Source: an uncultured Chloroflexia bacterium
GTDB taxonomy: Bacteria > Chloroflexota > Limnocylindria > QHBO01
Length of the DNA stretch: 64,000 bases
Reading direction: 5' to 3'
Assembly (NCBI GenBank): GCA_963750025.1
Contig: CAVVPF010000007.1
Location: forward strand, 95,661 to 159,660
The notes below the pieces were generated by a model. The model saw only the letters and a program-made list of their open reading frames with translations, was not told the DNA's origin and made no database searches. Shown here piece by piece: positions 1 through 56,275 of this stretch. The translations under genes and the position numbers were made by a program. The first letter of the stretch is position 1, and each line of letters opens with the position of its first letter.

Positions 1-149
1 GCTCAGCCAGCTGCTGCTATGACCGCAGCCCAGACTTCGATCCAGAGCCCGATGCCGACGAAGGCCCACCCGATGCCGACGAGCCCCCGCAAGTTCTTCA
101 CGGTGCATCGCAGCAGGCCTCGACAACGGGATTCAAGAGCATGCAGCTG

Positions 150-905
150 CTAGACACGATCGACTGCCTCGGACCGCTTGGCGGCGTACTCGTCGTCGGT
201 CAGTAGCCCGGCGCCGTGCAGATCGGCTAGTTCGCGGAGCCGATCTCCAGCGGGTGTGGAGTCGCCAGTCGTCAGCATGAAGCTAGTCACGGTCGCGGTG
301 ATCGCACTGAACAGGCCGATGCCCAGCAGCATCAGGACGCTGGCCGCCACTTTGCCCTCGGGCGTGATCGGGGTGACGTCACCGTAGCCGACTGTGGTCA
401 GGGTCACGATCCCCCACCACAGGGCATCCAACGGGGAGCTGATCGCTTTGTTGATGCCGACCTCGGCGGTATACAGGAAGGCCGAGCAGATGATCATGAC
501 TGCCAGCCAGGCCACGAACAGCCAGGCCAGCCCGCGGTGGCGCGCCATGCGCTCGAAGTTCTGCATCGCCCGATACAGGCCGGCGAAGGCCCGCACCAGG
601 CGCAGTAGGCGGAGCAGCCGCAGCACACGGACCCCGCGAGCGACCGGGATGAGGGCGAACAGGTCGATCCAGTGGCCGCGCAGGTAGGCGACCCGATCAA
701 AGGTCGCGGCGAACCGCGAGGCAAACTCCGCTACGAAGATGATGGTCAGGCCGAGGTCGATCGCCTCTAGGTAGGTGCGCACGGCTCCAGTGGCCGCATC
801 GCCGGCGAAGCCAATGCCGACGTAGGCAATCGCCAGCATGGCCATTACCAGCTCCCACGCCACCTCGTGGCGCGCGACGAAGGTATTGAAACGGGTTCGC
901 AGCAC
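150..905 (-). CDS. Voltage-gated-type K+ channel (ion transport family) with C-terminal SHOCT-like tail
   Basis: 251-aa ORF. K+ selectivity filter 'TLTTVGYGDVTP'; S4-like Arg-repeat helix 'VRVLRLLRLLRLVRAF'; C-terminal 'GLLTDDEYAAKRSEA' SHOCT-like motif. Confidence 0.85.
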   Translation of the reverse strand: MLRTRFNTFVARHEVAWELVMAMLAIAYVGIGFAGDAATGAVRTYLEAIDLGLTIIFVAEFASRFAATFDRVAYLRGHWIDLFALIPVARGVRVLRLLRLLRLVRAFAGLYRAMQNFERMARHRGLAWLFVAWLAVMIICSAFLYTAEVGINKAISSPLDALWWGIVTLTTVGYGDVTPITPEGKVAASVLMLLGIGLFSAITATVTSFMLTTGDSTPAGDRLRELADLHGAGLLTDDEYAAKRSEAVDRV

Positions 906-944
906 AGTCAGCCCGTATCGCGAGTCCCGGCGGGACTCGCGCGG

Positions 945-1403
945 TCAGCCGCTCTCACACCCGATGCCGTCATTGTCCCCGTCGAATCCGTGCGGGTCAG
1001 GAGGAAGGACGGTGAACCGCCGGAACGATATGTCTCCGCAGTCAAGGTCTGGCGGCGGCGGCGGAATGCACACCCCTGGGTACGACGGATCGCAGTTCCC
1101 CGGTGGGGGCGGCGGTGGGGGCGGGGGTACTGGCGTCGGTACCGGAGTCGGCACCGGTGTGGGCTCCGGCGTCGGAGATGGTGTCTCCGTAGGCGTCGGT
1201 CTAGCCGTAGGAGACGGCGTCGGCTCCGGAGTTGGGCTGATATCTACCGTTCTGCTGGCCGATGGCGACGGTGATCGATCCGGCTCGCCTGCGCCCGAGT
1301 TGCTCAGGACAGCGAGGGCGCCGAGAAGAACCAACGCGGCGATTCCGACGACGACCTTCTGTCGTCCGGACGCCTGGCCCCAGGCTGTTCGCAGCCAGTT
1401 CAT
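945..1403 (-). CDS. Membrane-anchored Excalibur calcium-binding domain protein with Pro/Thr-rich linker
   Basis: N-terminal TM 'VVVGIAALVLLGALAVL'; PT-rich linker including a run of 10 Pro; C-terminal 'CGDISFRRFTVLPPDPHGFDGDNDGIGCE' matches the Excalibur DxDxDGxxCE pattern. Confidence 0.7.
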   Translation of the reverse strand: MNWLRTAWGQASGRQKVVVGIAALVLLGALAVLSNSGAGEPDRSPSPSASRTVDISPTPEPTPSPTARPTPTETPSPTPEPTPVPTPVPTPVPPPPPPPPPGNCDPSYPGVCIPPPPPDLDCGDISFRRFTVLPPDPHGFDGDNDGIGCESG

Positions 1404-1481
1404 CGTCGACCCCCCGCGTCATACATGGTGCCAGCGTAGCGTCCCACTGTGGGAAGTAGCCGTCAATGGGCAAACGCCGCT

Positions 1482-2372
1482 TCACGGAGCGAAGACGACG
1501 GGCATTCGTTCGTCGGGACAGCTGACGATAAGCGAGGCGAGCGCGCTTCGCTCTCCGGTGTCAACGGCGAGGCTCCAGCGCACCTTCACCGCGATCCATG
1601 CAGATAGGTACGGGCATAGGTAGCTGGACGTGGGAGGCAGCCAGTCTGCCGGGTCCTGGTCCGACTTGCTCCGGTTCGACGAGGCCGAGACAGCAATCAG
1701 GGACCACGAGACCCCCAGGTCGTTGGCGAAACGTTCACGGCGGTCCGCATTCCAGCCGTATGCGCCCGAGTCCCAGGCTTCGGCAAGGGCGACGACGTGG
1801 TCGATGTCGAGACCACTCGGATCGGTGAAGAAGAGCTCGTCGTAGAGGCTCACCCATGAGCCGCCGGAGATGCCGCACGTCACGCTCACGGTCACGGCAG
1901 TCAGCGATTCCTCGATGAGCACCTCGCGGCGCGTGTCGCAGCCGTCGCCGTCGGCGTCGATCCAGTGACGGAACAGAGAGCGGTCATAGCCCGCCCGTTG
2001 TTCTGGAGCGGTCGGCAGGATGGCCAAGAGCTCGGCGAGGGTGAGCCATCCCGTGGACGCGGTCGCTGAGGGCGACGGCGAAGGGGTGGGCTTGGTGCTC
2101 GGCGCTGGCGAGGAAGCCATCGTCGGCATCGGCGTGGCGGTGGCGACATCGCTCGGGCTCGGCGGGGGCGTGACAGACGGAGGCGCAGATAGTTGGCGCG
2201 GTGAAGGAGTCGGCGAATCGGCGGGGGACGCTTCCGGGGACTCTGCGCTCTGCGACGCCTCCGCGGTTCCGGTCGGCATGCCGACCCTCGCCAGTCCAGC
2301 CGCAGATGACAGGAGCACGGCCAAGGCCACTGCCACGAGGACCAACTGGCTGGACGGCGAGAGGCGGCGCAT
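1482..2372 (-). CDS. Secreted DUF1524 / HNH-type (GmrSD C-terminal-like) nuclease domain protein
   Basis: Signal/TM 'LVLVAVALAVLLSSAAG', then an S/P/T-rich linker. Motifs 'HWIDADGDGCDTRREVL', 'DIDHVVALAEAWDSGA' and 'NRSKSDQDPADWLPP'. Confidence 0.7.
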   Translation of the reverse strand: MRRLSPSSQLVLVAVALAVLLSSAAGLARVGMPTGTAEASQSAESPEASPADSPTPSPRQLSAPPSVTPPPSPSDVATATPMPTMASSPAPSTKPTPSPSPSATASTGWLTLAELLAILPTAPEQRAGYDRSLFRHWIDADGDGCDTRREVLIEESLTAVTVSVTCGISGGSWVSLYDELFFTDPSGLDIDHVVALAEAWDSGAYGWNADRRERFANDLGVSWSLIAVSASSNRSKSDQDPADWLPPTSSYLCPYLSAWIAVKVRWSLAVDTGERSALASLIVSCPDERMPVVFAP

Positions 2373-2406
2373 CCGATGGGATCCCCAATTAGAGTGCCTA
2401 GCAGGC

Positions 2407-2784
2407 CTATGGGCGGAAGTCCGAGCTCAGGACGTAAAGGGACGCCGCCACTTCCGCGACCTTGATGCCGATCTGGTCCTCTCTGCAAACGTCATTGATC
2501 GACGCACGGAAAAGATCGACCAGCGAATCGGCGGGCAAGCCCGAGTCGCCATCCCCTTCGCGCGCCGCGTATAGCATGTCCCCGGCCATGACCCACTGCT
2601 GCTTGGCGGTCATGTCGTCGTTCCACTGCGGGCACGTGGTATCGGTGTACAACACTGTCCACGTCTGTGTGTATTTCCCCTCGGTAGGCTCGGGCGTGCT
2701 ACTTGCTCCGTCGCCTTCTGCACCATTCCCGGTGCAGGCGATCAGCAGCACGACGATCGCCGCCACAGCTGAAAGGCTTCGCAT
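2407..2784 (-). CDS. Hypothetical lipoprotein
   Basis: Internal ATG at 2784 gives 'MRSLSAVAAIVVLLIACTGNG' (signal peptide plus lipobox Cys). The upstream part of ORF 2407..2874 is Arg-rich junk. Confidence 0.5.
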   Translation of the reverse strand: MRSLSAVAAIVVLLIACTGNGAEGDGASSTPEPTEGKYTQTWTVLYTDTTCPQWNDDMTAKQQWVMAGDMLYAAREGDGDSGLPADSLVDLFRASINDVCREDQIGIKVAEVAASLYVLSSDFRP

Positions 2785-2856
2785 CAGCTCCCTCCCTCGC
2801 GCGGTCGATCCTGCGCCGACATGGTAGGGCCGGGGTCGCCTGCACGCTACCGACTG

Positions 2857-2944
2857 CCGCGGGCGTCGCCGCACGAGCTCTTCGCGCCGTCAACGTCGCC
2901 CCGGCCCTGCCAGCCTACGCCCCGGCACCTATCAGCGGCTTACT
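2857..2944 (+). repeat. Left arm of an ~85-bp inverted repeat (partner 5161..5240)
   Basis: Core 'gctcttcgcgccgtcaacgtcgccccggccc' matches the reverse complement of 5190-5220, 'gctcttcgcaccgtcaacgtcaccccggccc' (2 mismatches). Flanking similarity 'ccgcgggcgtcgccg' and 'gcggcttact'. Both translate as 'LFAPSTSPRP' in spurious ORFs. Confidence 0.8.
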
Positions 2945-3002
2945 CGCGCAGGTCACGAACTCGTGCGTCGGCCGTCTTGACCGCTGGGACTACCGTAGCC
3001 GG

Positions 3003-3224
3003 GTGAAGAGACGATCAATCGCACTCGCACTCGCAGTCCTACTCCTACTGGTGGCAGCTTGCGAGTCCCGGCCGCCGCTATCGGATCAAGATGCGTGGGT
3101 CCTAGAGCAAGACTGGAGCTGCCAACTGAACGGTCGACCGACCGAAGAGGCCGAGCGCCTTGGGATCCCAATCACCGACTGCGATTACTACGTTGAAGAG
3201 GCCAAGAAGATTCGAGCCCGATAA
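3003..3224 (+). CDS. Small hypothetical lipoprotein
   Basis: GTG at 3003 gives 'VKRRSIALALAVLLLLVAACES' (lipobox). The protein-like sequence continues to the stop at 3224. Confidence 0.45.
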   Translation: MKRRSIALALAVLLLLVAACESRPPLSDQDAWVLEQDWSCQLNGRPTEEAERLGIPITDCDYYVEEAKKIRAR

Positions 3225-3725
3225 GTGCCATCACGCTTCGTGACGATTCGCGCCCCAATCATGGTCCTCGTCCTCGCCCTGGCCGGTTGCGGCGGCTCCA
3301 TCGCCCCGGGTGGCGCCGGCACTCTTACGGCGGCGGCGGAAGCAACAGGCACGCCCACCGAGCGACCGCCGACGCCAACACCCGCCCCGCTCGACTGTGG
3401 GCCGGAGCTTGCTGCCTTCGTGGAGAAGCTGGCCGACCTGGATTCGCGGCTGACGATCGGTCTGACCTTCGCGGACTACGGCGAGCGGGTTGGCGATGCG
3501 AACGTGGCGCACGACCGCATCCTGGTCACAGACCTATCGCTCGACTGTCTGAACGTGGGCGTTGACGCGGAGCACGCGCTGCAGGCCTACGTGGACGCCC
3601 ACACCACCTGGAACGACTGTATCCAGGACCCGGCGTGCTCCAACGACTCGATTACGACAGAGCTCCAGGCGAAATGGGCCGAGGCCACCGAGCTCATTGA
3701 GAAGGCGCAACGGGCGCTCGAGTGA
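3225..3725 (+). CDS. Hypothetical lipoprotein
   Basis: 'MVLVLALAGCGG' lipobox, PT linker, four Cys in the mature part. Stop overlaps the next start. Confidence 0.5.
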   Translation: MPSRFVTIRAPIMVLVLALAGCGGSIAPGGAGTLTAAAEATGTPTERPPTPTPAPLDCGPELAAFVEKLADLDSRLTIGLTFADYGERVGDANVAHDRILVTDLSLDCLNVGVDAEHALQAYVDAHTTWNDCIQDPACSNDSITTELQAKWAEATELIEKAQRALE

Positions 3726-4390
3726 CCGAGGTCGCTTTCTGTTCACAGTGCGGCACGCGCCGCCAAGCCGGGTCTCGATTCTGTGTGTCGTGCGGTCACC
3801 GCTTCGAGGGCGTCCTCACGCAGCTGGGTCGGCAAGCTATCCGCCCAGTGGATGAACCCCGTCGATCCCCGCCGGTAGACATGGAACCGGCCACCCCGCC
3901 AACGAGTGAGGCGGCGGCTGACCGTAGCTCGACCATCAGCCTGATCGCGGGCCTGGCGTGGATCGGCGCCGCCCTGTGCTACGGCTACCTGGCCTTCCTG
4001 CAGCTGACATATGCCCCGCTGCTCGGCGGCCAAGCGGACCATCTGCGCGAGCTCGCCGTCGGCAACGGTATCGGCGCCGCCATTACCCTCTTCTTTGGCG
4101 CGCGGCTGATCTTGGGCACGACCCGCGGCACCCTGACGGGGTCTGCCATCTGGGGCGGGCTGGGTGTCGCCTATGGCGTGTGGCAGATCAGCCAGGGCGT
4201 CACCCACGAGGTGTTTCTGCTCGGCACCCTGCTGGCCGGGGCCGCCGGCGTGCTATCGCTCGTGGCGGCGCAGGGAGCACCGATGGCTGCTGACGAAGGG
4301 CCGCTGCTCAGCCCTATCGCCAAGGGGTTCCTCGTCATCATCGGGGTGGTGGTCCTCCTGGGCGCCATCGGCCTCTATGTGAACCGATAG
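3722..4390 (+). CDS. Zinc-ribbon domain membrane protein
   Basis: N-terminal 'FCSQCGTRRQAGSRFCVSCGHRF' double CxxC zinc ribbon, then about 5 predicted hydrophobic helices. Confidence 0.6.
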   Translation: MTEVAFCSQCGTRRQAGSRFCVSCGHRFEGVLTQLGRQAIRPVDEPRRSPPVDMEPATPPTSEAAADRSSTISLIAGLAWIGAALCYGYLAFLQLTYAPLLGGQADHLRELAVGNGIGAAITLFFGARLILGTTRGTLTGSAIWGGLGVAYGVWQISQGVTHEVFLLGTLLAGAAGVLSLVAAQGAPMAADEGPLLSPIAKGFLVIIGVVVLLGAIGLYVNR

Positions 4391-4475
4391 CGGGCCGTCG
4401 GATCTACCCGCTCGGGTCCCCCTCCGCCGCCTCCACGCTCGTTCGGTCCAAAAGGACCACCTTTCGAGTCGGGTT

Positions 4476-4826
4476 TCAGTAGCCTGGTCGGATGAGGAGC
4501 ACCATTCCGGGGTCCTCGGGGGGACCTGCCACGCAGCCTCCCGAGATCTTGTCCCCGGCCCGGAATACCGTGGTTCCCGACGCGTCATGGACTTCGAGGT
4601 GGGGCGTAAATCGGGCGCTGAAGCCGGGCGGCCACACGATCTCTTGACGCCCGCCACCAGATGAGAGGAGCCACGCGACGCGCGGGTCCGCCGGGCTTCC
4701 AGCGAGCGTGGCGTCGAGGCCAACACCCCGGCACCCGCCGTTGTCCGAAGCAAGGGTTGGGAGCGTTCGGGTGACGCTGCACGCCGTCTGCATGATGAGG
4801 ATCGCAACCACCGCGAGTGCACGCAT
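4476..4826 (-). CDS. Hypothetical lipoprotein
   Basis: ATG at 4826 gives 'MRALAVVAILIMQTACS' (lipobox). Only the last 116 aa of ORF 4476..5693 look protein-like. Confidence 0.5.
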   Translation of the reverse strand: MRALAVVAILIMQTACSVTRTLPTLASDNGGCRGVGLDATLAGSPADPRVAWLLSSGGGRQEIVWPPGFSARFTPHLEVHDASGTTVFRAGDKISGGCVAGPPEDPGMVLLIRPGY

Positions 4827-5160
4827 CGCTGCGACGATACAACCTCGCACCAGGCATTGTGCGAGCCATTTTGAGTGAGTCAGCTGCGACGATTCAGCAT
4901 CTTGGGATAGACGGGCGAATCTACGCGCCCCGACCGAAACGACCTCCTTCTGATCGGCCCAAGACCGGGACCGCGCGAAGCACGAATCGGACGGTCTTCG
5001 GGGGGCTCCTCTTTTGGGACGGGTCTGCGCGGGTCGGCGCGGGCCGGCGCGGCCGCTCGGACCTCCCGGCCAACTCGTCGGCCCTCGAGTCTCGGGAGTC
5101 GCTGACCGGACCGTCGGAGAGGGTGTTCGCCCCGTCGCCCCGACCAGTCTGGTAAGCCGA

Positions 5161-5240
5161 CAGTAAGCGGCGCTGCATAGGCTGCCAGCGGGCCGGGGTG
5201 ACGTTGACGGTGCGAAGAGCTTGAGCGGCGACGGCCGCGG
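5161..5240 (-). repeat. Right arm of the ~85-bp inverted repeat (partner 2857..2944)
   Basis: Reverse complement aligns to 2857-2944; see the partner entry. Confidence 0.8.
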
Positions 5241-5598
5241 CTCGCGTTCTACCAGGGAGCCGAGGAACAGTCCTGGCGAGGAATGGGTCGAGGACTGACT
5301 TCTGAGGAGTTGGAGCACGTCACCTCTCGACTTCCCGCGCTCGGTCGGTAGTTGCCTCCGCGCACCAGAATCTGTGGACAAGTGAGTATCATCCCGCCCG
5401 CCGGCGCGCATACTCAGCCACAGGCAGGGAGGCGCGGGACCCAGCGAGTTCCAACAGCGCGGTGTCCAACTCGGTCGCCCGTCCGGCGCGTTGTGCCAAT
5501 GGCGAGACCGACCCGCCTTGATCACCCTTCGCGGGACGACAACGGTTCGACCACGGAGGGGACTCGCTCGCGCCGAAAGGCAGAAAGGGACCTCGCTC

Positions 5599-6363
5599 AT
5601 GCGACGTCTGTCCATCTTGGTCGCGCTGATCGCGACCTTCGCTCTCTCAGGCAGCGCCCTCGCAGCGCCGACCACCGTCAAGATTGGCGCCACGCAGCCG
5701 ACATGGGCTCTGGGCGTCTACGCGCTGTACGCCGGGCCGCCCAACTACGACTGGGTTTCGCCGGGCCTCACCGCCGCGTACTTGGGCCGCGAAGCCGGCC
5801 TGATCAAGGCCGGACTGACGGCGGACCCCACCGGCTGCGCACCCCTCAACTACTGCGACGAGGGCCTCTTCGCCTTCAGGCCCGCGGTGTCGATCGATAC
5901 GTTCGCAGCCAGTGCTCTGACCTACGACGTGGTCAACCAGTACGGCGCGAACCCGGTGTGGATGACGATCGAGATCGACACCGGTGTGGTTGGCGATCGC
6001 AGCGACAACGTCGCGTTCCAGATGGTGCCGGCCCCGTATGGGTTAGCAGACTACGTCACGGTGAATGCCGCGACCGCTGCGAACTGGCTGCAGTGGGTAG
6101 ACAACAGCGGCACCACCACGGGTGCCGAAAGGACACTGGCTAGCATCGCCGCCGATTCGGCGTACACGGGCCTGACCGTCGTCCGCACCTACCTCCGTCT
6201 CGGCATGGGCGACTCCTACGGACCCAGCCCCGACGGCACGCAGGCGTGGGTCGACAAAGCCTCCATCGGCGGCGTGACCTACGACTTCGTCGTCAAGGGA
6301 AGCGGCTACGCCCAGAAGGATTGGACCACCAATCCTGGGTACCACGGTTTCAAGACCCCGTAG
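5599..6363 (+). CDS. Secreted hypothetical protein
   Basis: ATG at 5599 preceded by 'gaaaggga'. Signal peptide 'MRRLSILVALIATFALSGSALAAP'. No recognisable domain. Confidence 0.55.
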   Translation: MRRLSILVALIATFALSGSALAAPTTVKIGATQPTWALGVYALYAGPPNYDWVSPGLTAAYLGREAGLIKAGLTADPTGCAPLNYCDEGLFAFRPAVSIDTFAASALTYDVVNQYGANPVWMTIEIDTGVVGDRSDNVAFQMVPAPYGLADYVTVNAATAANWLQWVDNSGTTTGAERTLASIAADSAYTGLTVVRTYLRLGMGDSYGPSPDGTQAWVDKASIGGVTYDFVVKGSGYAQKDWTTNPGYHGFKTP

Positions 6364-6380
6364 CCGCGCACTCGACGGGA

Positions 6381-6416
6381 AAAGGGGCCGGTCCGAAGAC
6401 CGGCCCCTTTCTGTTT
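6381..6416 (+). terminator. Rho-independent terminator
   Basis: Perfect 10-bp stem 'ggggccggtc'/'gaccggcccc' with loop 'cgaa', followed by 'tttctgttt'. Starts about 20 nt after the stop at 6363. Confidence 0.7.
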
Positions 6417-6586
6417 GAGCTCGACGGCCCGGTCGCCCGCCGCTTATTTGGCCCGTTGCCGGGGAACGCGGGCGAAGGCGCGGTGGGCGACCGGGGCCGT
6501 TGTGTGTTTAGGGCAAACGTTGTGAGTGACGTCGGTGGCCCGCCAGTCCTGAGCCCAACGCAGAACTGATCGGAGGCTGGGTCTCC

Positions 6587-6623
6587 GCCATCCGTCTGGC
6601 GTTATTCACGCACACTCGCGCAT
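6587..6623 (+). repeat. 37-bp direct repeat, copy 1 (partner 7786..7822)
   Basis: 'gccatccgtctggcgtTattcacgcacactcgcgcat' versus copy 2 'gccatccgtctggcgtCattcacgcacactcgcgcat'; 36/37 identical. Confidence 0.9.
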
Positions 6624-6711
6624 GCCAGAAGGCCGTCCGCTGAGATAGGATGGCCGGGGCTGGCCACAGGCGGTGCTCGCCTGTGTGCGCGTCTATCGAT
6701 GAACGAGAGCT

Positions 6712-7476
6712 GTGTTCGACGTGGACGGAGGCGTCATCGTGGCTGCGGTGGTCCATCGGTTCTGTCCAAGCTGCGGCACGTCCCGGAGCGCTGATCTGCG
6801 CTTCTGCGGATCGTGCGGCTTCGACTTAGAGGCCACAGGAGCGCCGACAGTATCGAGCGACCCGGTGGATCGGACTTTGCCAGACGCCCCCAATACCGAT
6901 CCCCGGGCCATCACCTGTCCCAGCGGCGGTCATCCTCAGGCAGTTCAGAAAGTGAGCGCCGTGTTCGCCGCGGGAGCATCGGTATCGCAGGGTGTGGGCA
7001 GCGCGAGTACGACCTCGATTCGCTACAGCCAGAGAGGGGGCATCGGGGTTGCATCCGGTGGAGGGCCCACCGAGTACCACGAGACACGCTACACGGCTCT
7101 CGCGGCGATGCTCGCGCCGCCCGACGAGCCTCAGTACGAGAGCCCATGGGGCTGGCGCTCGCGTTTGTGGGTTGGTTTTTGGCTCCTGGCGATTCTCGCT
7201 GTGCCCGGTGGCGTCAGCCGGGCGCCGGCAGACATCGCCGTACCCGTACTGCTCGTCGACGTGGCATCCATTGCGATCCTGATCTGGATTCCGGTCTGGC
7301 ACAAGCGACGGACCGCGGCACGCCGGCGGGAAATCCTCGGCGAGCGCCACCCTCGGTGGGAGACGCTGATGACTCGCTGGGACCGGTCCTTCTACTGCCA
7401 TAAAGATGGGATCGTCTTCTTACCAGATGAGCCTGGCATCCCGGCACCCGCGTTCGCTGAGTCGATGGTCGTCTGA
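6712..7476 (+). CDS. Zinc-ribbon domain membrane protein
   Basis: 'FCPSCGTSRSADLRFCGSCGF' zinc ribbon; two TM helices ('LWVGFWLLAILAV', 'VLLVDVASIAILIWIPVW'). Same architecture class as 3722..4390. Confidence 0.55.
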   Translation: MFDVDGGVIVAAVVHRFCPSCGTSRSADLRFCGSCGFDLEATGAPTVSSDPVDRTLPDAPNTDPRAITCPSGGHPQAVQKVSAVFAAGASVSQGVGSASTTSIRYSQRGGIGVASGGGPTEYHETRYTALAAMLAPPDEPQYESPWGWRSRLWVGFWLLAILAVPGGVSRAPADIAVPVLLVDVASIAILIWIPVWHKRRTAARRREILGERHPRWETLMTRWDRSFYCHKDGIVFLPDEPGIPAPAFAESMVV

Positions 7477-7785
7477 GGCCGCACACGGCCGCGCGCAGTA
7501 TCCATAAGGGCCGATCCCGGCGCAGGAGTGACGGTCGCCCATACCGGGATACTGGCAGGCTGAGTCCATTCGGAGGAGCGCCAAATACTGAGGATGCTGG
7601 ATGGCCAACTGCCCCGACATGCAGCCGCTGGGAGCCCCTCACCAGCCTTGTCTGCGGCGGCTGCAGATATGGCTTTGCGGGTGAGTTCTAGGGCGTCCAA
7701 CTCGCGCGACCCTGAACCGAGGACATCGACCGTGACCAGCACCGGGCCCGAGCGGTGAGCCTACTACACGCAAGATAAGCCTCTG

Positions 7786-7822
7786 GCCATCCGTCTGGCG
7801 TCATTCACGCACACTCGCGCAT
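7786..7822 (+). repeat. 37-bp direct repeat, copy 2, overlapping the comM truncation point
   Basis: See 6587..6623. Its last ~12 nt encode 'TLAH', the first ComM-like residues. Confidence 0.9.
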
Positions 7823-8431
7823 CGCGGCGTGCTGCTGCTCGACGAAACCCTCCAGTTCCGCAGCGACGCTCTGGAAGCATTGCGCCAGCCGATGGAGGCG
7901 GGCAGCGTGACCATCGCCCGGGTGGACGGATCACTGTCGCTGCCGGCCAGCTTCTCGCTGCTGGCGGCCTTCAACCCGTGCCCGTGCGGCTGGCGTGGAA
8001 CCCGCCGGCGCGCCTGCACCTGCGACGAAGCGGTGGCGCGGCGCTACGCCGCCCGGCTCTCCGGCCCACTGCGTGACCGGATCGACCTGTGGGTCAGCAT
8101 GGATGAGCCGACCAGTGGTCGTGGTGGCGGCCGCTCGCAGCCGAGCTCGGTGGTCGCGCCGCGGATTGCCGCAGCACGGCGGCGGCAGCTCGAGCGACAG
8201 GGGATCGCCAATGGAGATCTGTCGCCGCGCCAGTTCGACGCGGCACACGGCATCACCCCATCCGCGCTGGCGCACCTCGCCGGGCGTGGCCGCAGTTTCG
8301 GACTTTCACCCCGGCGCCTGCACCGCGCGACCCGCGTGGCTCGCACCATCGCCGACCTTGCGGAAGCGGAGCAGGTCTCCATCGAGCACCTCGATGAGGC
8401 GCTCGTCTACCGAACGGGGATGCAGCCGTGA
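7811..8431 (+). pseudogene. comM: 5'-truncated Mg-chelatase-like ATPase ComM/YifB (C-terminal ~200 aa only)
   Basis: 'LAHRGVLLLDE' (Walker B region), 'LRQPMEAGSVTIAR', 'LLAAFNPCPCGW', 'RLSGPLRDRIDLWV', 'RVARTIADLAEAEQVSIEHLDEALVYR'. No N-terminal Lon-like or Walker A part on either strand upstream. Confidence 0.8.
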
Positions 8432-9672
8432 TCGGGATCGGCGAGGCCGGACCACGCGGCGAGACAGTCCGGCCGGTGCTGGCCGCCCTCCCGGTCGAGC
8501 ATGGCGGCTGGTCGGCGCTCGATCTCGCCGCCATCGATCCTCAAGACGACCGACCGTTTTGGATCGCCGTGTCACTGGTGCCGGGCGTTGGCCCGGTCGG
8601 CTTCGCACGCCTGCTGCGACGCTTCGGCAGCGCCCGCGCGGCCTGGGCGGCAGGGGCGGGCATCTTCGACGAGCTGCCTCGGGTGCCCGACGACGCTGCG
8701 GCCGGGTTGCGCCGGCTGCGACGTCGCAGCGCCACCTCGATCGCACGGGCGGTTGAGGCAGCCACTCGGCAGGCGGGCGGCCGAGTAGTGACCGTCCTCG
8801 AGAGCGGCTATCCCACCGCGCTCTCCGAGGTCGACCCGCGCCCTCCGGTCCTCTACCTGTCCGGCGACCCGCAGGCCCTCGAGGCGACCTGTGTGGCGGT
8901 GGTCGGGACGCGGCGTGCCACCGGGTACGGGCGCGCGTGCGCCGCCGAGATCGGCGACGAGCTTGCCCGGGCCGGCGTGACGGTGGTCAGTGGCCTGGCG
9001 CTGGGGATCGACGGAGACGCGCATCTGGCAGCGGTCGTCGCCGGCGGTCGTAGCGTGGGAGTGCTCCCGTCGCCGCTCGACCGGGTCTATCCGCCGCGAC
9101 ACCGGGAACTGGCCGCCCGACTGGTGGCGACCGGCGGGGGACTGGTATCTGAGCTTGCGCCGGGCCAGGCACCAGGTCGGCCGGACTTTGCGCGTCGCAA
9201 TCGGATCATCGCCGGATTGGCCCGGGCCGTGGTGGTGATCGAGGCGCCGGACCACTCCGGCGCGCTGCTCACCGCCGCCGCCGCGGTCGATTACGGAAGG
9301 GACCTGTTCGCCGTTCCCGGGCCGATCGACGCGGCCGCCTCGCGTGGCTGCAACCGCCTGATCGCCGATCACCTGGCCACGCTGGTCACCTCGCCGGCCT
9401 CGCTGCTGCACCGCATCGGAGCTGTCGCGGACGGGCGCGCGGTGAGCGTGGCGAGCCTGTCGGAATCCGAAGGGCTGGTCCTCGGCCGGTTGCTCCAACG
9501 GGCCGGGTCGATCGAAGAGTTGATGGAGAAGACAGGGCTGGCGACGGGTCCGCTGGCCAGTACACTGACCCTGCTCGAGGCTCGTGGGCTTGTCGATTCC
9601 TACGGTGGCGCGACCTTCCATCCGACCCTCACCGCGCGTCGAATCGGCCGCCAGAGGGAGCACGCTGGCTGA
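8428..9672 (+). CDS. dprA: DNA processing protein DprA (Smf)
   Basis: 'VAVVGTRRATGYG', 'VSGLALGIDGDAH', 'GRPDFARRNRIIAGLA', 'VVVIEAPDHSGALLTA', 'FAVPGPIDAAASRGCNRLI'. Start overlaps the comM stop. Confidence 0.9.
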   Translation: MIGIGEAGPRGETVRPVLAALPVEHGGWSALDLAAIDPQDDRPFWIAVSLVPGVGPVGFARLLRRFGSARAAWAAGAGIFDELPRVPDDAAAGLRRLRRRSATSIARAVEAATRQAGGRVVTVLESGYPTALSEVDPRPPVLYLSGDPQALEATCVAVVGTRRATGYGRACAAEIGDELARAGVTVVSGLALGIDGDAHLAAVVAGGRSVGVLPSPLDRVYPPRHRELAARLVATGGGLVSELAPGQAPGRPDFARRNRIIAGLARAVVVIEAPDHSGALLTAAAAVDYGRDLFAVPGPIDAAASRGCNRLIADHLATLVTSPASLLHRIGAVADGRAVSVASLSESEGLVLGRLLQRAGSIEELMEKTGLATGPLASTLTLLEARGLVDSYGGATFHPTLTARRIGRQREHAG

Positions 9673-21416: not shown

Positions 21417-21560
21417 CGGCCTACCATACGGCCTACCATTCGGCCTGCCATTCGGCCTGCCATCGGGCCTGGCTCTGCGGCCCGGCTCTACGGCCCGGCT
21501 CTGCGGCCTGGCTCTCCGACCCGGCTCTGCGACCCGGCTCTGCGGCCCGGCTCTCCGGCC
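21417..21560. repeat. Two adjacent tandem arrays: ~12-bp unit x4, then ~13-bp unit x7
   Basis: 'cggcctaccata/cggcctaccatt/cggcctgccatt/cggcctgccat', then 'cggcccggctctg'-type units (7 copies with point variants). They abut the 'aattctc' end of copy C. Confidence 0.85.
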
Positions 21561-21610
21561 CGGGCCGAGAGATGGCTCGCGTGGCGTAGCCGGCTCGGTA
21601 CACTCCGCGC

Positions 21611-53493: not shown

Positions 53494-54368
53494 CCACCGT
53501 CACGCGAGCACGTCCCGAGGTCCGCATCGCCGAGCGCGCCGGCTTCTGTTACGGCGTGCGCCTGGCGATCGACAAGGCCAAGCACGCGCGCGACGAGGGC
53601 AAGGAGGTCACCACCCTCGGGCAGCTCGTTCACAACCCCGGGATCAAGGCCGACCTGTCCGACCGCGGCATCAAGACCGCAGACCTGGCCGACCAGATCG
53701 AGGGCGGCACCCTGGTGATCCGCGCCCACGGGGTGCCGGCGACCGACCTGGAGAAAGTGCGCGGCAAGCCCCACCTGGAGGTCATCGACGCCACCTGCAC
53801 CTGGGTCCTCCAGTCGCAGAAGGCCGCCAGGGAGTTGTCCGAGGCAGGCTATACGGTGTGCATCATCGGTCACGAGGACCATCCCGAGGTCAAGGGTGTG
53901 CGCTCATATGCGGGCGACAGGCACGTGGTGGTCGACGACATGGACCGATCCACCTGGGATCGCGTTCCGCACACCAAGAAGATCGGCGTCCTCTCGCAGT
54001 CGACCATCCTGCCCTACAAACTGGAGGAGTTCGCCGCCTTCTGCCTGCGCCGCTGCCACGACCTCCGCGTGGTCAACACGGTCTGCCCGGTGACCCTCAC
54101 CCGGCAGGCCGATTCGGTCGAGCTGGCCGCGAGCGTTGACGCCGTGATCGTGGTCGGCGGCAAGAACAGCTCCAACACCAAGGAGCTGGCCGTGAAGTGC
54201 GCCGATGTCTGCTCCGAAACGATCCACATCGCCGATGCTGACGAGCTGGAGGCCGACTACCGCGGCTGGCTGGCCGGCAAGGCCCGGATCGGGATCACCG
54301 GCGGCACCTCGACACCCGAGGTCGACCTCGAGGCGGTACGCGAGCGAATCTACGCGCTGGTCGGCTAG
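53490..54368 (+). CDS. ispH: 4-hydroxy-3-methylbut-2-enyl diphosphate reductase
   Basis: 'AGFCYGVRLAI', 'LGQLVHNP', 'VIRAHGV', 'DATCTWV', 'IIGHEDHPEV', 'LSQST', 'NTVCPVT', 'VVGGKNSSNT'. Confidence 0.92.
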   Translation: MTTVTRARPEVRIAERAGFCYGVRLAIDKAKHARDEGKEVTTLGQLVHNPGIKADLSDRGIKTADLADQIEGGTLVIRAHGVPATDLEKVRGKPHLEVIDATCTWVLQSQKAARELSEAGYTVCIIGHEDHPEVKGVRSYAGDRHVVVDDMDRSTWDRVPHTKKIGVLSQSTILPYKLEEFAAFCLRRCHDLRVVNTVCPVTLTRQADSVELAASVDAVIVVGGKNSSNTKELAVKCADVCSETIHIADADELEADYRGWLAGKARIGITGGTSTPEVDLEAVRERIYALVG

Positions 54369-54400
54369 GCGCCGTACCGGATGGCAGGCTCGTGTAAGCC

Positions 54401-54527
54401 TGCCGATGCCTGCCGATGCCTGCCGATGCCTGCCGATGCCTGCCGATGCCTGCCGATGCCTGCCGATGCCTGCCGATGCCTGCCGATGCCTGCCGATGCC
54501 TGCCGATGCCTGCCGATGCCTGCCGAT
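54401..54527. repeat. Perfect tandem decamer array (tgccgatgcc) x12 plus a 7-nt partial unit
   Basis: Read directly: 12 identical 10-bp units from 54401 to 54520, then 'tgccgat'. It abuts the 5' end of repeat element copy A. Confidence 0.97.
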
Positions 54528-54531
54528 CCGC

Positions 54532-54677
54532 AATTCTCAGCCTCGGAGGCTTACGGACAAAGAGCTGCGGCCGGGGGCCTCTCCGATAGACTGGCTCTCG
54601 GCCAGTGAGAAATACGCTCTGGCGGGCCGCGGAAGTGCTGACCCGCCTGCCATAAGCCCCCACGGCTGAGAAATAGC
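54532..54677 (+). repeat. 146-nt structured repeat element, copy A
   Basis: 'aattctcagcctcggaggcttacgg...ctctcggccagtgagaaatacgctctggcgggccgcggaagtgctgacccgcctgccataagcccccacggctgagaaatagc'. Same length and block structure as 56040..56185. Confidence 0.85.
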
Positions 54678-55970: not shown

Positions 55971-56000
55971 CGGGCCGATACTAGCCGGGACCCGAGCCCA

Positions 56001-56030
56001 CCGGTGCCCGCCGGTGCCCGCCGGTGCCCG
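56001..56030. repeat. Tandem decamer (ccggtgcccg) x3
   Basis: Three exact units, 31 nt upstream of the glycosyltransferase start and immediately 5' of repeat element copy B. Confidence 0.9.
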
Positions 56031-56039
56031 CCGACCGAT

Positions 56040-56185
56040 AATTCTCACGCTCGGAGGCTTATGCCGAAGGCGCGGTCGTCAGCGACCTCCGCGACAGCCT
56101 GCCTCTCAACCTGTGAGAAGAACGCTCCTGCGGGCCGCGGATCAGCTCACTCGCTTGCCATAAGCCCCCGCAGCAGAGAAATAGC
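56040..56185 (+). repeat. 146-nt structured repeat element, copy B
   Basis: 'aattctcacgctcggaggcttatgcc...ctctcaacctgtgagaagaacgctcctgcgggccgcggatcagctcactcgcttgccataagcccccgcagcagagaaatagc'. Confidence 0.85.
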
Positions 56186-56275
56186 GGCCAGTCGCCCGCG
56201 AGTCGACAGGATCCCGATACCCATCGCGCCGACGTCGCCCGGGACCCGAGCCCGCTGAAGGCTACACTCGGAGTC

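Follow-up and report, generated by a model that had tools for sequence, protein, structure and literature searches.

A probable large serine recombinase element splits comM in a soil Candidatus Limnocylindria genome

The comM fragment and its repeats

Why does the competence gene comM of this Candidatus Limnocylindria genome lack its 5' half, and why does the remnant begin at one copy of a repeat? In the window, by which we mean the whole 64-kb stretch of DNA that was analysed, a pattern search recovers exactly two direct copies of a 37-mer on the forward strand, at 6587-6623 (copy 1) and 7786-7822 (copy 2). The copies are identical at 36 of 37 positions, the sole mismatch being T/C at position 17, and 100 shuffles indicate that none is expected by chance. 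Copy 2 runs into the 3' part of comM (7814-8431, forward strand; LAHRGVLLLDE... in translation), whose frame, TLAHRGVLLLDE..., comprises the C-terminal ~205 codons and reaches its stop at 8431 with no internal stop codon. A Pfam search of 7811-8428 matches positions 103-201 of the 207 positions of the Mg_chelatase profile and the entire Mg_chelatase_C domain, and the start of dprA (8428-9672, forward strand), the host gene downstream, overlaps the end of comM by 4 nt. The original prediction, which had described both repeat copies and the survival of only about 200 C-terminal codons of ComM, is confirmed on these points by the pattern search, the Pfam matches and the stop-free frame.

That prediction took the repeat at 7786-7822 for an att-type junction of a genomic island. 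The evidence presented below makes it very probable that this copy is the attR of an integrative element of the large serine recombinase (LSR) type, probably ~11 kb in length, which lies in comM and has a further module stacked at copy 1.

Intact comM in relatives and in the same species

One genome per species was scanned, which provided 30 Candidatus Limnocylindria/Chloroflexota loci with a ComM that is 55-69% identical to the fragment. In these loci a comM frame of ~435-550 codons reads ...RPGEASLAHRGVLFLDE across the break point, barring four exceptions, three of which are cut by a contig end and one of which reads through as a 914-residue frame. Such an alignment had been proposed in the original prediction, under which a 37-mer lying whole within an intact comM would have pointed to a local duplication; the alignment places the break point, and the motif is absent from all 30 loci.

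An intact allele is also found in the same species. Soil sequencing runs examined at 98% stringency yielded a 145-nt contig in X1 (depth 9.2) and a 110-nt contig in X3 (depth 9.3), which match window positions 7817-7909 at 100% over 93 nt, and in which the sequence upstream, CCGCGAGTCCGCCCGGGTGAAGCGTCGTTG, encodes PRVRPGEASL, followed by AHRGV. These contigs are the empty site in the same species, and the intact allele at the insertion point reads ...GAAGCGTCGTTGGCGCA|TCGCGGCGTG. The insertion point is fixed because intact comM and the motif have only GCGCA in common. The first 28 nt of the 37-mer are unlike comM, and its last 9 nt, CTCGCGCAT, are the sole comM-like DNA in it. Compared with the same-species intact allele, true comM DNA begins at 7817 (GCGCAT), which makes the final 6 nt of the repeat comM DNA (9 nt with the Leu codon included), and T7822 completes the His codon of comM at copy 2. 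The ComM-like sequence does start inside the repeat, as had been proposed, but its extent had been put too high, at ~12 nt. Split and intact alleles occur together in at least one run (X1), and the island looks polymorphic in the X1 population. In that run the island contigs have depths of ~2-4 and intact comM one of ~9.

Both junctions and the recombinase in related islands

Looking up a relative's ComM fragment led to a contig (L099) that contains, in this order, the comM 5' half, a 464-aa LSR, a divergent HTH gene, cargo genes, the motif and the comM 3' half. The comM 5' half encodes 303 aa (ChlI and Mg_chelatase positions 1-107), and the LSR gene begins 9 nt later. The LSR (N-terminus IYARISSDRYGQQ) displays the Pfam domains Resolvase (E 2e-28), Recombinase (8e-11) and Zn_ribbon_recom (2e-9), and the cargo comprises an M10 peptidase, an ECF sigma factor, RE_XamI and a DEAD helicase. 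The attL of this element reads ...GGCGAGGCGTCGCTGGCCCA|TGCCAGTATGTGCTAATGTTCCCTG ATG and its attR ...TCTGGCGTCATTCACGCACACTCGCGCA|CCGCGGGGTG; the element measures 9,801 bp, and joining its flanks yields a stop-free ORF of 503 aa whose identity to an intact database ComM is 91%. Both junctions are also present in a second contig (L111), which matches the downstream gene order of the window, comM-dprA-Big_5/CAP protein-topA, at 73% nucleotide identity. A response-regulator/AAA_31 gene precedes the comM 5' half in L099, L102 and L111.

The same arrangement recurs in a family with more than 2,400 LSR homologues. Five LSR protein variants (P0001, P0002, P0004, P0006 in comM), 86-100% identical to the query, have genes that immediately follow a comM 5' half coding for 262-306 aa and precede the divergent HTH gene and cargo; besides the LSR of L099, three variants that are 86-88% identical to it (L102, L108-L110 and L111) adjoin a comM 5' half. 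Of the 120 ComM clusters nearest the N-terminal half from the relative, the majority are intact, with ~503 aa and up to 94% identity, and in four the protein ends in ...SLAH followed by four residues, which together with the stop codon are encoded by the P' arm. The presence of both intact and SLAH-truncated ComM clusters therefore implies that insertion is polymorphic and recurrent. One of these comM islands (L108, 5236-10608) encodes defence-like cargo, namely a 1,200-aa MmeI-type methyltransferase-nuclease fusion, a TIR-domain protein and an Mrr-like nuclease.

Taken with the same-species intact allele, the junctions of the relatives bear out the att-type nature of the repeat, as well as the view that DNA to its left belongs to an island, with the comM 5' half beyond the window. 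The suggested analogy to AbaR-type islands did not survive, as the recombinase of the relatives is an LSR and is neither of the AbaR/Tn7 type nor a tyrosine recombinase.

The repeat as a P half-site of attP

In Logan contigs of soil metagenomes the segment ~7780-7822 alone reaches a summed depth of 500-900, with 28-54 contigs per run, in which the flanks vary on both sides and the shared segment ends abruptly on the right at 7821/7822. When JGI metagenome contigs were scanned with a 21-nt core of the motif, 15 loci were detected, and a scan of viral contigs gave no match. Three pairs of loci with a common left flank diverge directly after ...CGCRCA. A sequence logo built from 31 distinct instances gives 1.2-2.0 bits at the 28 positions that precede the crossover, save for a degenerate R position; to the right, conservation ends at the CA and only a weak NSCNAG is seen. 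Because conservation covers 28 nt left of the crossover and stops at the CA, the 37-mer is most naturally understood as the P half-site of an attP, with exchange at the CA at window positions 7820-7821; it consists of element DNA plus only ~5 nt common to comM. In copy 2 the P half-site is 7794-7821, and in copy 1 it is 6595-6622, with its crossover CA at 6621-6622. The sites attL (...CTGGCCCA|TGCCAG) and attR (...CTCGCGCA|CCGCGG) share CA only. As to whether attP forms an imperfect inverted repeat around the crossover, P and the reverse complement of P', compared by eye, have GWCATTMGC and ACGC blocks in common, with an offset of 2 nt.

An intact attP is available from a related element. The 3,586-nt ENA contig k127_28507 (L107) is read as a 3,459-bp circle or tandem because its first and last 127 nt are identical. 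At its junction the motif meets the P' arm, which immediately precedes the LSR start codon; apart from the LSR, the circle encodes just a rolling-circle-type Rep (PF23343) and a 182-aa ORF. The integrated form of the element (3.46 kb; L104-L106) lies just downstream of sodN-sodX in other samples, of like sediment. Its LSR is 83% identical to the comM LSR and uses a different attB, next to sodX. This related element is the only source of a free attP; no excised form of the island in the window was seen, and no recombination directionality factor was identified for the LSR element.

These features suggest the following mechanism. The LSR would pair attB, within the codons for PGEASLAH|RG, with an attP that reads ...TCTGGCGTCATTCACGCACACTCGCGCA|TGCCAGTGTGTGCTAATGTTCC... 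and is followed ~20 nt further by the recombinase start codon, cut both at the central CA and swap the halves. One product, attL, would comprise the comM 5' half, the P' arm and the LSR gene, and would lie beyond the left edge of the window; the other, attR, would be the 28-nt P half-site followed by the comM 3' half, at 7794-7822. Split just before the Walker-B DE motif, ComM should be inactive, and precise excision would be expected to restore it. For the window genome an LSR, an attL and any current activity are presumed from the junctions and the LSR observed in relatives and from the empty site in the same species. Understood in this manner, the truncated competence gene is explained as a reversible-looking mobile-element insertion that predicts the content of the DNA left of the window, and a large LSR family gains candidate attP and attB sequences.

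The island to the left of comM

The right-hand ~7.8 kb of the island corresponds to window positions 1-7821 (forward strand) and extends beyond the left edge of the window, as delineated by GC content, synteny, Pfam matches and a leftward extension (L001). The GC content rises from 65-68% before 7.8 kb to 69-75% beyond it, and no synteny was found between 1-7821 and the genes upstream of comM in relatives. Pfam searches identify as cargo a K+ channel, an Excalibur-domain protein, a secreted GmrSD_C/DUF1524 nuclease, lipoproteins and two zinc-ribbon membrane proteins; look-ups for exact protein matches found nothing for the K+ channel ORF or for one ORF from L092. The conserved right-end module of the main island (6527-6622, forward strand), which ends in the P half-site of copy 1, is 95% identical over 97 nt to the island end of a relative (L089/L099, 17112-17208), in which the adjoining host genes are only ~70% identical. 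Since the elements are closer to each other than their hosts are, the insertions may be independent and recent, and for that reason dN/dS on the comM 3' half would not discriminate.

The Logan contig L001 reaches 1,460 nt past the left edge of the window and stops inside an HTH gene, the start of which, MSQPPVARDQAILGLLRERGPAGSVE, has the counterpart MSEPPPARDEAILGLLRERGPAGSAE in the related contig L103. Over 382 nt, L001 is 90% identical to L103 DNA located just right of the LSR and HTH genes. If the register of L103 applies, the LSR gene and attL of the window genome would be located ~1.9-3.3 kb to the left of the window; by this homology the left junction is probably ~3.3 kb to its left and the island ~11 kb long. 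At that far junction the P' arm and the recombinase gene are to be expected in place of a third 37-mer. The junction is expected to consist of the comM 5' half ending in ...GGTGAAGCGTCGTTGGCGCA, followed by the P' arm T[GAC]CCAG[TC]G[TC]GTGCTAATGT...

Module B and arrays of half-sites

The two crossover points delimit a recombinase-free unit of 1,199 bp, here termed module B (6623-7821, forward strand), which is absent from the island of the relative. Its only credible gene (6712-7476, forward strand) encodes a 254-aa protein with weak zinc-ribbon matches (Zn_Ribbon_1/DZR, E 8e-5 to 2e-4, under the Pfam cut-offs) and a hydrophobic stretch that looks membrane-spanning; this is the gene bracketed by the repeats that the original prediction had described as one for a zinc-ribbon membrane protein. 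A tblastn search with the LSR detected no similarity to it in the window. In L089, L093 and L099 the left flank of copy 1 joins the comM 3' half directly, with no module B; in L089 and L093 there is one motif copy, with the left flank of copy 1 (97 nt, 95%) on one side and the comM 3' half (~70%) on the other. Because these contigs join the copy-1 flank straight to comM, the 1.2 kb between the copies is an insertion relative to the island of the relative, in agreement with the earlier suggestion that the second copy marks a stacked module. The P half-site of copy 1 marks where the main island truly ends. Copy 1 is followed by the left end of module B, TGCCAGAAGG..., which has just TGCCAG in common with the P' arm.

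With no LSR and with two direct P half-sites flanking it, module B has the make-up of a CIME/pseudo-SCC-like satellite, and might be what is left of an earlier element, or else a satellite mobilised in trans. In the first history, an older comM element would have lost its recombinase end, and the main island would later have entered the attL of that element. In the second, a small unit would have integrated in trans at the attR of the main island. In both histories the relative timing of the insertions is our inference.

Arrays of half-sites occur elsewhere. The JGI contig Ga0153915_10027799 (L085) has seven direct half-sites in 5.6 kb, with ends at 394, 1465, 1983, 2499, 3229, 4847 and 5442; L086, L090 and the comM island of L102 have three copies apiece, and L084 and L096 have two. 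Small ORFs for lipoproteins and membrane proteins lie on both strands of the arrays, in which there are no recombinase remnants. One module is common to L085 and L096 at 70%, these contigs being otherwise alike only in their motif copies. The simplest reading, by analogy to the tandem ssrA islands of Dehalococcoides and to SCC composites, would be accretion and decay of elements. In these soil Limnocylindria the P half-site ends many modules of 0.36-1.6 kb, and a bolder, rather improbable reading is that such modules are exchanged in trans by the serine recombinase, as a functional analogue of integrons that relies on a serine enzyme in place of a tyrosine one and in which module B would be one cassette. 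The half-site modules usually possess one secreted or membrane protein gene, are stacked up to seven deep, and have differing neighbours in different arrays when homologous. If any part of this locus goes beyond what is already described, it is possibly these half-site arrays and nothing else.

Several other identities of the repeat were considered and dropped. An integron cassette array is disfavoured by the missing GTTRRRY (copy 2 has GTCATTC), by folds of 16 instances that show no consistent hairpin, and by the ORFs of L085 in both orientations. The same 16 folds have no common structure as expected of a hairpin attC-like site or a MITE, and ARAGORN located no tRNA nearby that could account for a tRNA fragment. 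A dif/Xer site, promoter, CRISPR repeat, DNA uptake sequence or transposon inverted repeat was set aside as the copies are all direct and not palindromic as a whole; the 0.36-1.6 kb spacing and the serine recombinase at the matching junction also speak against these identities.

Alternative origins of the truncated comM

With regard to the break in comM itself, the gene might have been cut by a deletion or rearrangement in which the 5' half was lost, the repeat being an unrelated intergenic motif. This would suit the fact that the 5' half was not observed in the window genome and that the motif is present at many other loci; however, the breakpoint falls on exactly the base at which the LSR crossover of the relatives takes place and the conserved half-site ends, and an HTH gene of the integration module sits at the expected place to the left of the window, which makes such an origin unlikely. 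A secondary deletion of attL after integration is conceivable.

Still less probable is an island mobilised by a tyrosine integrase or an AbaR/Tn7-like transposon, with the 37-mer as a duplicated att core or a transposon end. Although comM is the classic target of the Tn7-like AbaR islands of Acinetobacter, and direct repeats at island ends are typical of tyrosine integrases, the neighbour of attL is a serine recombinase in every relative with the same junction, and the gene tables of the relatives' islands contain no Phage_integrase or Tns families. Furthermore, attL and attR share CA plus a few neighbouring bases and no long core, there is no 5-bp target duplication, and the joined flanks restore the frame exactly.

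An equally slim chance attaches to the two-copy layout being an assembly artefact, i.e. a mis-join of this metagenome-derived genome via a motif that recurs in many elements of the same soils. Coverage inside module B is almost nil in the soil runs examined, and the Logan contigs break inside the shared 31-mers of the motif, so that the chain from module B through the P half-site to comM is taken from the assembled window; but the difference at position 17 leaves longest exact shared words of 16 and 20 nt, too short for assemblers with k >=21, and the junction of P half-site and comM 3' half was independently recovered in JGI and ENA assemblies of a relative. Intact comM and the motif share only the GCGCA noted above, and the join to comM is therefore real. 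We accordingly retain insertion by an LSR as the preferred explanation of the locus.

Comparison with known systems

Insertion of LSR elements in comM is already documented, and the island of the window is a new case in soil Candidatus Limnocylindria. In the catalogue of Durrant et al. 2022 (PMC10083194), Mg-chelatase/ATP-dependent-protease genes are the most common target, being the target of 12.4% of predicted site-specific LSRs, and competence genes are enriched among the targets. The elements in ComM/YifB genes of that catalogue resemble the present one in the insertion within the comM coding sequence, the hybrid sites around a 2-nt crossover, the exact restoration of the gene that excision would bring about, and the LSR beside attL, which here is seen in relatives and predicted for the window genome; they differ in the host lineage, here soil Candidatus Limnocylindria. 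The cut site of the present LSR clade, SLAH|RG, is just before Walker B.

The tandem serine-recombinase elements of the SCC composites (rlmH, staphylococci) and the ssrA islands of Dehalococcoides (McMurdie et al. 2011, PMC3146451), which also belongs to Chloroflexota, offer a parallel in their recombinase-free units between direct att repeats and in CIME accretion. The repeat here, in contrast, is the element-side P half-site and not the end of the target gene, and the modules are 0.36-1.6 kb.

As in the Listeria phages A118/phi10403S (comK), SPbeta of B. subtilis (spsM) and skin (sigK), a serine integrase probably splits a gene that precise excision could rebuild. Unlike these, the island in the window has no phage genes that were seen, and its cargo consists of secreted and membrane proteins (with defence genes in relatives); no evidence of regulated excision of the comM island was seen. 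The AbaR/AbGRI islands have the same target gene, comM, in Acinetobacter, and probably a similar reduction of transformation, whereas they use TnsABC-type transposition with a 5-bp duplication at a different position in comM. According to the literature comM is a hot spot for other elements too.

The splitting of comM should lower transformation with divergent DNA. Lowered transformation is thought to shield mobile elements from removal.

Other repeats and a terminator

An intergenic repeat of ~90-130 nt, with the core GGGCCGGGGYGACGTTGACGGYGCGAAGAGCTYG.GCGGCGACG.CCGCGGC, is present in the window at 2813-2943 (reverse strand) and 5152-5241 (forward strand), and also at L099 16460-16594, L086 1202-1263, L088 182-242, L103 2930-3008 and L108 10723-10797. 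It is 78-91% identical across islands of relatives whose genes are otherwise unrelated, and could represent a promoter, an operator or a small RNA.

Just after the gene for a 290-aa secreted protein, positions 6375-6412 form a strong GC-rich hairpin that leads into a T run (aaaaggggccggtccgaagaccggccccttt), which is likely to be a terminator; one Logan-contig end of L001 falls at this point. With respect to a structured RNA, which was also rejected as an identity for the repeat, Rfam reports only sub-threshold matches at 6380-6448 (SorX/mir-128), which are chance matches caused by the terminator hairpin.

Finally, tandem repeats of 10-13 nt (GCCTGCCGAT x14; CGGCCCGGCTCTG-like x7) are found at window positions 54368-54537, 21450-21576 and 55996-56186, where they adjoin a shared module of ~130-190 nt with ATTCTCACGCTCGGA that occurs in the window in three copies and in both orientations. 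A similar copy is located at L001 7525-7760, just left of the window, beside the HTH gene of the island.
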